From IMG/VR virus record IMGVR_UViG_2563366897_000006: a DNA stretch of 45,081 nucleotides; one strand, given 5' to 3'. Made by a program: the position numbers. This stretch comes from a virus. Lineage: Duplodnaviria > Heunggongvirae > Uroviricota > Caudoviricetes. This document shows, piece by piece, positions 30,001 through 36,000 of the stretch (position 1 is its first letter; every line of letters begins with the position of its first letter).

Positions 30001-33000
30001 TTTAAAACCTAAGTTATTGATTCTTTCGGAAACCTCAATTTGAGGAGACCGGACAACGCCACCTTTGGCTAATGTTTCAATAGTGCGTTTCACATTGTCA
30101 TGACGTTTACCCACCAGCTCTGCAATTTCAACGCTGGTCATGGATGCTTTGCCGTTAAAAATTGCGGTGTTCATTGTTGGTCTCCTGTGGGCTTGTCATC
30201 TTCTGTATTCGCTAGACTTGGGTGTGTATATGGAATGCTCGTATCCAGATGACAAAGAATGGCAACATCCTCCGGAACACCTCGCGTTTTCCACTTTCCA
30301 ACACCTTGACTGCCACGAGGCCTTCCTTTCTTTGGGAACCTGCGACCAATAGCGGCATTGGTTTTAAATTGAATTTTTAATATTTCATAAAGGGTCATTC
30401 TTTAGTCTCACACCAGATACTTTGTTATCCAACGATGTTAACCACAGGAACCCAAAGTATCAAGAAATTCTGTTACTTTAGTATCAACAGCCATGAGAGG
30501 AGAAGAAAAATGAAGTCTTTAGGTGAACGTCTCATCAACGCACGGCAAAAAGCTGGGTTAACACAAGATGCGTTGGCTAAAAAAGCTGGGGTCACCAGAG
30601 TTGCAATCAGTAAAGCCGAGCAAGGCCTTACAAAAAGTTTCAACGGTGACACCCTTTTTAAAGTTGCAGCTGCACTGCAGTGTTCACCGCAGTGGCTTCA
30701 GAACGGAGATGAAAAAGATAAGCATTGGGAAAATAATGTTAAGAGCTGCCCACAGAGAGACACAGCATACTCTTACCCTGTAATTAACTGGGTTCAGGCA
30801 GGATTATTCGCAACTTCTGGTGATGACTACAACATGTATGATCAGGATAATTGGAGGCATTCTGTAAAATACGCTGGTGAGAGGGGGTTCTGGCTGGAAG
30901 TGCACGGAGACTCAATGACTTCGCCCGTAGGAATAACATTTCCTGAAGGAATGTCGATCCTTGTCAACCCAGATAAAGAAGTTTTTTCAGGGTGTTACGT
31001 CATCGCCAGAAAAAAATCTACCAATGAAGCAACATTCAAAAAATATATTTCTGAAATGGGAAAGGCGTTTCTAAAGCCCCTTAATCCACAATATCCAATC
31101 ATAGAAATGGACAATGATTGCGAAATAGTAGGTGTTGTGGTTGATGCCAGGTGGGATATTTTCTAACCAGACACAAAACACAAAAAGAAACCAAAGTATC
31201 AAAAATCACTTGCCACACCTTGATACCTTAGTTACCATAAAACAAAGTTCGTAACTGAGGTATCATCTCATGATCAATAAAGCTACAACTCTTGACTGTC
31301 TCGAAGAACTGAAAAACCTCGGCAGCCTCATTACACTAATAGCAAAAGCAACACCTGATGCTACGCTCTCTAGCGATATAGAGTCATGCGCAGGACTGGC
31401 ATGGGATATGACAAATAGCATATCCAGAAAGCTATCGTCAGCAATGCTTTTACAGAACAAAAATTCTGCAATCAACAACCGTCTTCGCACCCAACGCGAA
31501 GCCTGCGGCTTAACAACCGCCGAACTCGCCAGGCTGCTCGATCTCGATGAAGAAATTATCATCCAGTGGGAGAGCGGAGAGTATGAACCAACTATCAGTA
31601 TGCTTATCCCACTGGCAAATATTCTTGGCTGCGATCCGATGTGGCTGTTAACTGGCGAAACGGCAGCAAAGGATATCTGCGCATGAAAAACTGTGATGCT
31701 TACCATATTTGTCTCATTGGTGAATTGCTTGATTTCATACAAAAAAGCACTGCGCGCAATAATAAAAATATAACATATGGTGATCTGGTAATAATTTCAG
31801 AGGATATAAAGAGCATCGCTCTTAAATTCAAGAGCGACGCGAGTATTGATGACGCTATTTACGCTTATCTTGCGAAAATAATTGACGGATCCAAAATCCA
31901 GCCTCTGGATGAACCTCGTCAGTGAAAAACTCCTTTGATGAAGATGAGAACTGCTTCATAAACTTTACTTTATCTTCAGGTGAAACTACCTGACGAATTA
32001 ATGCGGAGATAGCAACTTTGTGCCAAATTAATTCTTTTTTGAGTTCTGAAATCTCTTTTTCGAGTTGCTCTGCGTTAATCATTTATCCTCCATTGAGAGC
32101 TGAATTGAAAATGGGGACCAACACGCGGCTACGTGTGGTCGTGCGCCGGACACGGATAAGCATCCGGTAACTGATTATCAATCATTGCGGAAACAGTCTC
32201 AATATGAAAACACTTCTGAGACTCGCTATATAGCAGGACATATAAGTCAGCTGAGGAAGCCATGAAAAAGTTCGAAAACATAACTGTTCTCCATGTTGAT
32301 GACTTTGATTATACAAACCCGGAACTTCTCCCGGAGGTTGTAAAGGCAATAGATGTTGCCGATATAGTGATTAGAGGAAAGAGAATTGTCAAAAACAGGC
32401 TCGCATGCACTTCAGAAGCAATGACAGAAACAACCTCACAGCAAGATAATTACGAAGGCATTTGTCTGGAGCCTGATTCATTTGCGGTAAATGTTTATCA
32501 TTTATTGCATGCAACACAGGTATTACATATGTCCAGTAATCACGAAACGAAAACACTCGGCAGCGAAATTCTGAATTTTGCATGTGAGTATGCAAAAACT
32601 GCTGCCGAAAAAGAATTAGCGCAATAACAACAAATATGCTCTGAACGTTTATTGCGGTTTTATCGCCGGGGATTGTTACAATCTTAATCCACAGGAGGAT
32701 TTATTATGACTTTTATAAAGAATATGGCATCACACAAGACCGCCTGTCTTATTGCACAATACGGTGAAAATTACATGCATATTGCCTGCTTATTTCTGCG
32801 TAAAGCATACGGGAAATAACAAATGACACATGAACCCATTAATACATATCGTCGCCGTATAGCTGTTGCAGCACTCCATCGAATAAAACGTAAAACAGGT
32901 GGTGATCTGCTTATTGTTGACCTTCTGGATGGGAACATTACGACCATAGAAATAACAGAACAGTTTATAAACCAGTTGCTGTTGCGCTTTGAAGATATTA

Positions 33001-36000
33001 CCCGTGGTGAATTGGGTCGAGTGGAGGGTGAAACAGAATTCCGAACTGCATACCAGAATGCCATCGGGATTAATCAACATACTGAATACCAGGCTGAAAC
33101 CGGAAAGTTAATTATAGACAACCTTTTACAAGAGGTTATTGATTACGCGAAAGAAAAATATATCAGCGGAGGAATTAACTGATGGCTAATTTATCCCCTG
33201 TATCTGTTGTGCACGAAAAAGTGCAGATCGTTATGACAATTGAAAATGGCCAGGTAACAGATGTCTGCAAAGTCCGCGATGGAGAGCTGATTGCCAGCAT
33301 GGATACATTCATATGGCTGGCAGAAAGAGCGGGGTATCAGATAACAGCACCTGCTCAGGAGGAAACCAGTGACATTAACAGCAACGCGAATTCCTGAGTG
33401 GGTCCACCAGCAGGCGTTGCTGGTCCTGCGGCGGTACAGATGCCGACGTATATTCCCGCATCGGATACAGCGCAACGGATATCTCAGTCTGAAGGTTAAC
33501 CGTCGCTGGCGGCTGTTATCGAAAGACGACGGCCGGAACTGGGAAATAATGAGTCATGAACGTTATTCGGGAGAAATAAAGAAATGATCGACAACCGCAC
33601 CGCCAGCGCCATTGACCAGGCATTACAGAAACATGATACACCCGTCGGCCCGTTATTTTTTGTAACACATCACGGAAGAACAAAAAAATGCCTCACTCGA
33701 AAAACGGCAATTCGTTACCTGGCATTCTTTATGACCACCCGCGCTTTTGAACGTTCAGGATTCCGACAACGCCATCCTGACAAGCGTTTTATCTTCAACG
33801 GGAATGAAATATGGAAACGTGGAGAATCAACCACAGAGTACACCCGCGCACACCAGCGAACAATCAGACGACTGCGCAGACTCATCGCCAGGAAACAGTA
33901 TACAGAAAAATGGTTCAGAAAATATGACACATGGAGCGCCGGATATTACGAACTGATGGCAACAAAACCATTCTGACGTAAACGAAATTAACCATGACGC
34001 AATTAAATAAGGCAAGCTGAATACAGCAGGAGGACCATGAACATTTATTTCAGAATAGTTATATCACTGGCAATTATCGCATGTATTTACGGATTGCTCG
34101 TCCCGTTTCTGATATCAATGAAGGATACGGTAGCGGTGATTTCTGGCTTTGCACTGACGTTTCTAACCCCGCCATGTATTTATACCATTTATAAGGGGCT
34201 TTCTTTCACTAAGGATAAAAGATGAAAAAAATTATTTTTTCTTTAGCCATTGTTCTGCCTGCCATTGGCCTTGTCGGTTGTGATCGTGTTGAGCCTGGTA
34301 ATGTGGGCATCAAAGTCAACAAACTTGGCGACGACAAAGGCGTCGGTGAAGTGGTCGGTGTTGGTCGCTACTGGACAGGCTGGAACACTGAAGTTTATAT
34401 CTTCCCGACCTTTAAGCAGATGAAGACCTACGATGATCCATTCAGTTTCCAGATGAGCGATGGAACAACCATTGGTTACCACATCGGAGTAGCCTACAAG
34501 GTTGATCCATCCAAAGTTACCACAGTCTTTCAGACCTACCGCAAAGGCGTGGACGACATTACCGACACCGACCTGCGCCAGAAGATAGCCGACGCACTCA
34601 ACCGACTGGCCAGCAAAATGACCACCGACAAATTTATCGACGGCGGCAAGTCTGAGCTGCTGGATGCAGCTCTTAAAGACATTCAGGAAGAAATGACGCC
34701 CATCGGTATTCAGGTAATAAGCCTCTCATATGTGGGTAAGCCGGAGTACCCGCCTACTGTTATCGACAGCATTAATGCCAAAGTCACGGCGAACCAGAAA
34801 ACTCTGCAACGCGAGCAGGAAGTAAAACAGCGCGAAGCGGAAGCCAACATGTTGCGCGCGGAAGCTGCCGGACAGGCTGATGCGATTCGCACAAAAGCCC
34901 AGGCTGAAGCCGATGCTATTCGTTTACGCGGTGAAGCTCTGCGTCAGAACCCCGGTGTTATGGAGCTGGAAGCCATCAATAAATGGAACGGCACGCTGCC
35001 GCAATACATGACCAGCGGTGCCAATACACCATTTATCCAGGTTAAATAACTTAATATGCCCGGCAGGCCGTCGGGCTAAGGGAAAAGCAGATAAACACTC
35101 ATAATACTCAACCGCAAATAATGAACTATGACCCAAATCTGACGTCATGCGGACGCATGGCGAAACAAACCGTTCGATTAACTTTCGGGCAATGGGAATA
35201 CCGCGAAACATTCGAAGTCACTGTCGGTGGCAACCTGACCGGACTCGATGTTATCAGTTGCGCTATTGAAAGCCTGTACGCAACGCTGCCTTATGAAGAA
35301 GTCGAGGATGAGCGTACAGGGGAAACAGATATCATGGCCACCATTAATATTGGCGAACTGACATGCCAGGATGAAGACCTGTCCGGAGAGCTCTGGCTTG
35401 CCGGGATGCTTATCTCAGCAGAAATTATCAGTATTGAACCCGCTACAAACATACGGCTCTGAAGTTCTCACTATTCAGAGAGCAGGAGAAAAAATGTTCG
35501 CTTTGATTAATCAGGGACAACTGTATACCGACAGTGCCGGTTACCCGGTAATAATTATTCGCTGCATAAACAACACTGTGTTGTACAGAAGAATTGATGG
35601 GCGAACACAGTCAGTAAAAATAAACGATTTCAATGAACTGTTTGAACGGATTGATCACCAGGAATACCGACAAATTCTGGCAGAAACAGAGCAGGAGGCT
35701 CATCTGAAAAAATTACGGGCCATGAAAAGGAAGTAAAGAATGAATAAAGCGTTTGAGCTATGGGTGCGCCAGCGTTACGGCAATCGCTATGACCTGACGC
35801 GAGATGTTGACGGCTTCTACTGTCGTGAAATTGTGAAACGAATGTTTGAAGTGTGGTGCCACTGCCGTGGGCTGAGTGTTGTGTGAGGTAATACATGGGC
35901 AATGTGATTCAACTGGCTCCCAATGAATGGGTTTGTGAAAGCGTTCTTATCGCAATTACCGGGCTCAAACCAGGCACAATTCTTCGGGCCCGGAAAGAAT

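Follow-up and report, generated by a model that had tools for sequence, protein, structure and literature searches.

A probable CI-repressed early-left operon of portable accessory genes in a phiP27-family prophage of Escherichia coli

The exo-xis region of phage lambda and the Shiga toxin (Stx) phages, with orf60a, orf61, orf63, orf73, ea22 and ea8.5, consists of small, mostly uncharacterised open reading frames (ORFs) in the operon of the early-left promoter (PL), immediately before xis; lambda and Phi24B express these ORFs early, and lysogenisation and induction shift under their influence (PMC3824215, PMC4195576, PMC7093339). In the Rac and Qin prophages, the PL operon (DUF1391, dicF, dicB, recE) has no N gene, lies behind a CI-like repressor and holds repressed genes toxic to the host. 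Judged by analogy, these two would be the closest functional counterparts of the operon described here, in which thirteen ORFs are packed into positions 31270-35886 of the plus strand of a 45,081-nucleotide stretch of Caudoviricetes DNA (IMG/VR record IMGVR_UViG_2563366897_000006; this whole stretch is called the window below). The region is probably an early-left transcription unit repressed by CI, carrying portable accessory cargo and running into xis and int, and not a recognisable defence system.

At least 14 complete RefSeq E. coli chromosomes carry the 4.7-kb region with 100% identity. Phage phiP27 matches it at 93% identity over 74% of its length, and many Stx phages cover 29-38% of it. 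In strain ZH063 (RefSeq) the identical DNA sits inside a complete siphovirus-type prophage with tail, head, terminase, lysis, tRNA, Q, DnaB-like, DnaC-like, Rha, cro-like and LexA-family repressor genes, which ends in xis and int and adjoins yecE, yecN and cmoA. The gene order of phiP27 (NC_003356, genes L01-L15) is the same, with L03-L10 corresponding to the region. DNA identity and gene order therefore identify the region as the early-left (PL) arm of a phiP27-family lambdoid prophage integrated in yecE. It is not new: its phiP27 counterpart was sequenced in 2002, it is annotated in RefSeq and it is widely distributed. It belongs to the known class of lambdoid early-left accessory regions, real but ordinary, and the products of the phiP27 counterpart genes are all annotated as unknown in that phage too.

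Repression by CI is suggested by the layout of operators and promoter (Table 1). Five copies of the palindrome GWWAC-N4-GTWWC are present in the 45-kb window, where 0.42 would be expected; four of them flank cI, three of these forming the presumed leftward operators (OL). On the other side of cI, in the rightward operator region (OR, 30416-30485), there are related sites, including one-mismatch copies of the operator. The three OL operators, as read from the sequence, bracket a PL-like sigma-70 promoter, the middle one overlapping it, and the promoter-like site stands 25-60 nt upstream of the first ORF. The thirteen ORFs lie directly downstream of cI and directly upstream of xis, with intergenic gaps of -29 to +78 nt, except for one of 336 nt that holds an antisense gene; several starts overlap the preceding stop (ATGA), and a Shine-Dalgarno-like sequence is found at most of them. 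No convincing plus-strand intrinsic terminator is present between the first ORF and xis-int. The sole terminator-like match there is a weak 6-bp stem inside g12, and such matches are no more numerous in the region than in shuffled sequence. The xis-int pair would be the distal, core end of the PL transcription unit.

A preliminary description of the window had proposed an early-left operon of small accessory genes between an OL-like region and xis, with good ribosome-binding sites and lacking N and recombination functions, and in these respects it holds. The array that it described is real, dense and on the plus strand, apart from one gene, gAS, which PGAP and the match to phrog_20080 place on the minus strand.

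Pfam, PHROGs, NCBIfam and PADLOC profiles were searched with all products. Apart from the 37-aa g4, each one falls into an existing PHROG family with a full-length match, most of these families being of no known function, and the searches gave no function beyond helix-turn-helix (HTH), ParE_like, SPFH, DUF5406, DUF4222 and DUF1233. The HTH and SPFH domains, the only motifs that could be named at the outset, are confirmed, and the ParE_like, DUF5406 and DUF4222 matches are added to them. Most products remain without a function, so recombination or regulatory roles are not assigned to most of the ORFs. No product matches an N antiterminator family in Pfam, PHROGs or NCBIfam; the first gene, in the slot that N holds in lambda, encodes an XRE-HTH protein. 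Recombination genes (exo, bet, gam, erf, recT/recE) are absent from the operon by the same three databases, and from the rest of the prophage, and there is no recognisable cIII homologue among the products (Pfam, PHROGs). The lambda exo-xis region has an exo gene, whereas this operon has none, and no homologues of orf60a, orf61, orf63, orf73, ea22 or ea8.5 are found by Pfam and PHROGs; lambda is not among the phage DNA matches listed. What the two regions share is the position of small early ORFs, here g11, g12 and g13, abutting xis. A sibling prophage carries an Ea22-like gene in the corresponding slot.

In the reading that we prefer, transcription from PL, after infection or SOS induction, would need no antiterminator, and the core job of the transcript would be the delivery of Xis and Int. 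The remaining genes would be delayed-early cargo that influences either the host cell or the choice between lysis and lysogeny, comparable to kil, dicB, cIII and the exo-xis genes. Among them, g1 would act as an HTH regulator, g7 as an orphan toxin-like protein of the RelE/ParE fold, silenced by CI instead of by an antitoxin, and g9 and g10 as a periplasm-facing SPFH assembly anchored in the inner membrane, with a partner of two transmembrane helices (2-TM), most likely altering the behaviour of the envelope or of a membrane protease. Further along, g11 would contribute an acidic DUF5406 protein, and g12 a relative of the pleiotropic regulator RgdR with the DUF4222 domain. In the lysogen, only the antisense gene gAS would be likely to be expressed, by means of its own promoter, leader and terminator.

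Table 1. Features of the early-left region and its surroundings (positions in the window; aa, amino acids; pI, isoelectric point; GRAVY, grand average of hydropathy; CDS, coding sequence).
Feature	Position	Strand	Description	Basis
cI	30435-31166	+ (as operon)	S24/LexA-type repressor gene	HTH_3 and Peptidase_S24 domains (Pfam)
OL	31187-31200, 31222-31235, 31251-31264		three 14-bp operators, GWWAC-N4-GTWWC	motif scan; perfect copies
PL-like promoter	31210-31238	+	putative sigma-70 promoter, TTGCCA-17-TACCAT	consensus scan, 9/12 matches
g1	31270-31686	+	138 aa, acidic; N-terminal helical part, C-terminal XRE/DicA-type HTH (aa 70-130)	HTH_3, 2.5e-11
g2	31683-31925	+	80-aa ORF, uncertain coding status; start overlaps g1 stop (ATGA)	phrog_23054; not called by PGAP
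hairpin	31813-31840	-	terminator-like, 12-bp stem and T-rich tail, just downstream of gAS	no T tail on plus strand
gAS	31855-32082	-	75 aa, antisense to PL	PGAP CDS; phrog_20080 full length, 1.4e-46
gAS leader	32083-32174	-	5' leader, about 95 nt, two predicted hairpins	conservation; fold prediction
gAS promoter-like site	32174-32202	-	TTGAGA-17-GATAAT	consensus scan, 10/12 matches
g3	32262-32627	+	121 aa, acidic	phrog_5451 full length, 1.7e-82; phrog_4587 covers aa 57-121
g4	32706-32819	+	37 aa, basic; motif YKTAxLxAxxG...LRKAYG[KR]	conservation across related loci
g5	32823-33182	+	119 aa; part of g5-g6-g8 block	phrog_1737
g6	33182-33397	+	71 aa, acidic (pI 4.3)	phrog_340
g7	33369-33587	+	72 aa, very basic (pI 11.3); ParE/RelE-superfamily toxin-like	PF24732 ParE_like; PGAP name
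g8	33584-33976	+	130 aa, very basic (pI 10.8)	PHROG family member
g9	34037-34225	+	62 aa, two transmembrane helices; stop overlaps g10 start (ATGA)	phrog_1130 'membrane protein'; GRAVY 1.05
g10	34222-35049	+	275-aa SPFH/Band-7 lipoprotein; C-terminal part Ala/Glu/Gln-rich	PF01145 Band_7, 2.9e-31, residues 22-208; phrog_200 'lipoprotein'
g11	35121-35462	+	DUF5406, very acidic	PF17400 full length, 1.7e-22, 80 bits (cutoff 25)
g12	35494-35736	+	80 aa, DUF4222	PF13973, 1.2e-15, 57 bits (cutoff 27); phrog_285
g13	35740-35886	+	48 aa, immediately upstream of xis	phrog_3871, 5.7e-36
xis	35895-36131	+	DUF1233 excisionase	Pfam, PGAP
int	36187-37500	+	tyrosine integrase; yecE next downstream	Pfam, PGAP

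The portability of the cargo is evident from a comparison of 80 IMG/VR loci with an SPFH gene at least 97% identical to g10, made by tblastn and ORF extraction. The HTH gene g1 is present in almost all of them, at 31-100% identity, and g4 and a gene of the g6 family in nearly all; the block of g2 and the antisense gene occurs in about 12. Between g4 and g9, about 27 loci, the window included, carry g5-g6-g7-g8, and about 50 loci of the phiP27 type have a variant of g6 (g6') followed by a protein of 190-212 aa for which no Pfam match was found. Salmonella and Klebsiella prophages carry g5-g6-g8 in this order, with g6 translationally coupled to g8 and no g7 between them, and in the Klebsiella prophages the 193-aa protein comes after g8. 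The g6-g8 pair is thus found with and without g7, which stands between the two in some lineages only. The g5 family is narrow, with only 15 clusters among 5.8 billion proteins, all from Enterobacteriaceae; that of g6 has three variants across the related loci and 24 representatives at 50% identity. The operon is a patchwork of modules, each shuffling independently of the others: g1, g2 with the antisense gene, g3, g4, g5-g6-g8 with or without g7, g9-g10, g11, and g12-g13. PhiP27 and the Stx phages at yecE have the same attachment site and the same order of cI, HTH gene, small ORFs, 2-TM and SPFH genes, DUF5406, DUF4222, xis and int; phiP27 differs in its middle slot, where g6' and a 212-aa protein (L07-L06) replace g5-g6-g7-g8, and in its frameshifted antisense gene.

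The antisense gene gAS appears to code for protein: in the part that it shares with no other ORF, substitutions relative to a 91%-identical relative are distributed 0/3/11 over codon positions 1/2/3. It has a GGAGG ribosome-binding site, and its product looks like a coiled-coil by eye, the coiled-coil matches in Pfam being sub-threshold only. With its own predicted promoter, leader and terminator, gAS looks like a self-contained, moron-like unit. The phiP27 copy has a 1-nt insertion near its 5' end (window position 32035), which shifts the frame, and is annotated as a shorter ORF (L09); the type phage may therefore carry a defective copy.

Of 5426 complete E. coli genomes, 975 (18%) carry the leader of gAS (93 nt), in 1630 copies that are 82-100% identical to it and nowhere annotated. 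Its conservation runs from about the predicted transcription start to the start codon, and includes the ribosome-binding site caatGGAGGataaaATG. Upstream of it there are at least four promoter types, and downstream at least six unrelated families of small proteins of 57-100 aa; the six alternative cargo proteins have no significant match in Pfam or PADLOC. An Rfam search of both strands of 30000-36300, with E up to 1, gave no match to the leader or to the rest of the region. The predicted fold has a z-score of -2.35, and hairpin 2 shows one compensatory change but is weakened in two variants. In Rac/Qin-like prophages (O157 strain 86-24, 55989 and ATCC 25922), the leader is again found in antisense orientation within the PL operon, some 1 kb away from the repressor gene, with the cassette about 330 nt upstream of dicF-dicB. 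The Rac and Qin operons thus share with this one the absence of N, the CI-like repressor, repressed toxic or toxin-like genes and the leader with antisense cargo about 1 kb downstream; they differ in carrying dicF, dicB and recE, none of which is present here, and in the cargo protein behind the leader.

The leader cassette is the one part of the region that resembles a true cargo hotspot, and it is likely to be expressed in the lysogen. We tentatively suggest, as a possibility and not as our preferred reading, that the leader is an 'expression port', a portable 5' untranslated region antisense to PL which would drive swappable lysogen cargo, either for exclusion or defence or for silencing leaky PL transcription into toxic genes such as dicB, with the 2-TM and SPFH pair as a second portable, envelope-level anti-phage module.

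The slot between OL and xis had also been taken for a hotspot of anti-phage and anti-defence cargo. That the whole region is an island of this kind, protecting the lysogen or neutralising host defences during infection, is unlikely in our view. The slot is highly variable between otherwise close prophages, and a leader with at least six unrelated cargo ORFs is a pattern typical of accessory hotspots. Anti-defence proteins would suit early expression from PL. The g11 protein is very acidic (pI 4.1 and charge -14, computed on the 123-aa form called by PGAP), and in one homologue DUF5406 is joined on its C-terminal side by a Lar restriction-alleviation domain (PF14354); nothing else hints at a function for the family, and this single case hints only weakly at anti-restriction. 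The neighbourhood of a Tad2 anti-Thoeris gene, which adjoins the 2-TM and SPFH pair in a P1-like phage-plasmid, is likewise a single case.

On the other side, PADLOC-DB v2 (2023), which covers catalogued defence systems, gave no specific match for any of the 14 products and the 6 alternative cargo proteins. Only generic HTH models (RmrA, capH and others) matched g1, two further matches were sub-threshold (E above 0.006), and there was none for the SPFH, 2-TM, ParE-like, DUF5406 and DUF4222 proteins; beyond generic HTH matches the predictor thus returned noise. Neither Pfam nor NCBIfam nor PHROGs assigns a defence or anti-defence function to any product, and no paper was found that links SPFH, DUF5406 or DUF4222 to phage defence. 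A defence protein from Gifsy (PMC12724215) is an unrelated ATPase. With three CI operators ahead of them, the plus-strand genes should be silent in the lysogen, which argues against defence borne by the prophage, gAS excepted, and excludes for them a defence role of the classical prophage kind. The sequence contains no recognisable system; a defence or anti-defence role has no support in these searches and keeps a low probability.

The most portable part of the operon is g9-g10. The g10 lipoprotein has the lipobox LVGC followed by Asp at position +2, a residue that keeps lipoproteins in the inner membrane. From lipobox and Asp +2, g10 is therefore predicted to be retained there, with its SPFH body facing the periplasm, in the same topology as HflK/C. 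Its partner g9 has no Pfam match and no NfeD (OB-fold) domain. A small hydrophobic ORF lies directly upstream of the SPFH gene in 78 of the 80 phage loci, in two phage-plasmids and in 10 of 12 genomes of other species; the carriers among these species include Salmonella, Pantoea, Kluyvera, Buttiauxella, Yersinia pestis, Lelliottia, Symbiopectobacterium and a metagenomic proteobacterium (SPFH 32% identical). One of the phage-plasmids is P1-like, with its g9-like ORF unannotated, and the other SSU5-like. The two genes form a conserved, portable module. By eye, the stretch just before the pair in the P1-like phage-plasmid is very similar to the dicF-dicB spacer of an O157 prophage, including a hairpin with a T run after it.

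The known systems nearest to the pair are the bacterial HflK/C-FtsH and QmcA-YbbJ operons, the latter an SPFH gene with an NfeD partner, which share with g9-g10 a Band-7 domain with a helical, Ala/Glu-rich region and a small membrane partner, and, for HflK/C, the predicted location. HflK and HflC are anchored by an N-terminal transmembrane helix where g10 has a lipobox, and in SPFH-NfeD operons the NfeD partner lies downstream, in contrast to the bare 2-TM partner of 51-88 aa upstream of g10 and its relatives. Among solved structures, the closest in sequence to g10 is E. coli HflK (2e-4), followed by prohibitin-2. Together with the topology, weak NCBIfam matches to HflC and HflK and the place of the pair in a PL operon, where lambda has the FtsH inhibitor gene cIII and the prophage has no recognisable one, this could point to an HflK/C-like cage made by the phage, which would modulate FtsH or another membrane protease and tune lysis and lysogeny as CIII does in lambda. 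We regard such a cage as quite unlikely. The g10 scores are far below the HflC and HflK cutoffs (TIGR01932, 26 bits against 134; TIGR01933, 24 bits against 159), and the pair is also present in the phage-plasmids and in varied other contexts, none with a CII/FtsH switch, which points to an autonomous membrane function. As the pair moves between unrelated replicons, we prefer an independent role at the level of the envelope, for example in exclusion, in protecting the membrane or in controlling a membrane protease, to a lambda-specific, CIII-like one. An HflK/C-like virulence factor of a Pasteurella prophage (PMC9872710) is a loose parallel only.

The ParE-like protein g7 matches PF24732 over 65 of 67 profile positions (1.6e-17, 63.7 bits, cutoff 24.4). 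It resembles the ParE/RelE toxins of type II systems in this full-length match, in its small size and in being very basic, and differs from them in having no co-varying antitoxin neighbour and no sequence match to a solved ParE/RelE structure; g6, g8, g11 and g12 gave nothing significant against solved structures either, and the good-to-fair AlphaFold model of g8 matched no solved fold. The layout is that of a classic toxin-antitoxin pair, with the acidic g6 upstream overlapping g7 by 29 nt and an ATGA overlap between g7 and g8, and g6-g7 or g7-g8 might be read as a type II addiction or abortive-infection module. This is very unlikely: all 80 loci have a gene of the g6 family but only about 27 have g7, the Salmonella and Klebsiella prophages couple g6 directly to g8, phiP27-type loci have the unrelated 190-212-aa protein after g6, and neither g6 nor g8 matches an antitoxin family. 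On co-occurrence, g6 and g8 are rejected as antitoxins of g7. Since neither co-varies with it, g7 is read as an orphan toxin-like gene, which, by analogy with kil or dicB elsewhere, would be held off by the repression of PL by CI.

At the proximal end, g1 matches phrog_4739 over its full length and also phrog_4836 ('CII-like regulator'); its match to the DicA subfamily in NCBIfam (4e-12) is below the cutoff, and the gene is present in phiP27 and the Stx phages integrated at yecE. Paralogy between the N-terminus of g1 and the C-terminus of g3, suggested by phrog_4836, was rejected, as BLASTP gave no alignment. The coding status of g2, which overlaps the antisense gene, is uncertain, with substitutions of 3/4/7 by codon position against a 91%-identical relative, weak evidence for coding. 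PGAP calls g3 in a short form (32421-32627), and no match to g3 was found in Pfam, NCBIfam or PADLOC. The small g4 has no match among the profiles of Pfam, PHROGs, NCBIfam or PADLOC and no annotation in the ZH063 RefSeq (PGAP) record, many GenBank records predicting a 'hypothetical protein'. It is intact in 79 of 79 related loci, with 37 aa (32 aa in one clade) and 52-100% identity, behind at least three unrelated upstream sequences. Both g4 and g13, which had been picked out as sub-threshold ORFs with strong ribosome-binding sites, are conserved genes. That the small ORFs are chance frames or decayed remnants of a defective prophage is extremely improbable: several are very short (37 and 48 aa), the evidence for g2 is weak and the phiP27 antisense gene is frameshifted, but full-length PHROG matches exist for every ORF other than that of 37 aa, diverged loci keep g4 and g13 intact, third codon positions take most of the substitutions in gAS, the genes stand close together behind ribosome-binding sites, and the structural, lysis and replication modules of the prophage are all complete.

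At the distal end, PGAP starts g11 at 35091, on a non-standard codon. The start is probably at 35121, because DUF5406 homologues begin at a conserved MNYDPN; g11 keeps this N-terminus and the conserved W, G and AEI positions. DUF5406 ranges from Enterobacterales to Pseudomonas and Burkholderiales. The AlphaFold model of g11 (predicted local distance difference test, pLDDT, 85.5) matches no solved fold, and in BFVD it matches only uncharacterised phage proteins, one of them from Halomonas phage phiHAP-1. A mechanical ORF call of 35371-35736 overlaps g11 and is better read from 35494, as g12. The DUF4222 protein RgdR is a pleiotropic regulator of type III secretion and motility, encoded by prophages and phage-inducible chromosomal islands (PICI) (PMC3378721, PMC10877973, PMC6092414), and its RGD motif is required for activation of type III secretion (PMC3378721). 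The g12 protein resembles RgdR (ECs1581 / C1493) in its domain, its small size and its location on a mobile element. It is 24% identical to C1493 of CFT073 over 72 residues and has QGQ at the RGD position, and it is rejected as an orthologue. In the PICI, the RgdR gene precedes a primase gene, whereas g12 precedes g13 and xis. The g13 gene is conserved in 70 of the 80 related loci and adjoins a DUF1233 xis gene in Salmonella and Klebsiella prophages also.

Several points weigh against the interpretation as a CI-repressed unit with portable cargo. Its promoter, its unterminated transcription and its silence in the lysogen are predictions from the sequence. A role of the cargo in host takeover or in modulating the decision is argued from position and analogy, not from homology, because most products have no assigned function and the g8 and g11 models match no solved fold. 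Promoters inside the operon might also be active in the lysogen and express parts of it; a candidate site is placed upstream of g9 because the g9-g10 pair stands alone in phage-plasmids. Finally, a recently described or undescribed defence system would escape a PADLOC database of 2023.

Elsewhere in the window, yecE (DUF72) is truncated at 37928, while ZH063 yecE is intact at the same position. After the truncated gene there is a large serine recombinase gene at 37979-39502 (Resolvase, Recombinase and Zn_ribbon_recom domains), and beyond it, within 37527-45081, low-GC (37-43%) ORFs that are phage-tail-like, one of which, 682 aa long, looks to the eye like a tape-measure protein. These features suggest that yecE has received a second element, beside the phiP27-like prophage. 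In the early-right operon, Rfam matches to C4 antisense RNA (82 bits) and isrK (59 bits) lie at 29113-29301 on the minus strand, inside the 5' part of a Rha/anti-repressor-like ORF (28492-29358); the site looks like a P1/P7 immI-type (c4-icd-ant) module. Between Q and the lysis genes, 22162-22686 on the minus strand holds the small RNA STnc100 (140 bits) and three tRNA genes, and a DNA methyltransferase gene of about 1 kb present in ZH063 is apparently missing from the window near this place.

Phages of the phiP27 type thus appear to run an N-independent, recombination-free early-left operon of portable small genes, which have been 'hypothetical' in databases since 2002. Its noteworthy units are the 2-TM and SPFH pair, which is shared by lambdoid prophages and phage-plasmids and found across Enterobacterales, a ParE-like orphan apparently silenced by CI alone, and an unannotated leader present in about one in five E. 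coli genomes. The interest of the region rests mainly on the portable pair and on the leader cassette; the pair, g7 or the cassette could each prove to have a function in exclusion, in anti-defence or in tuning the switch.

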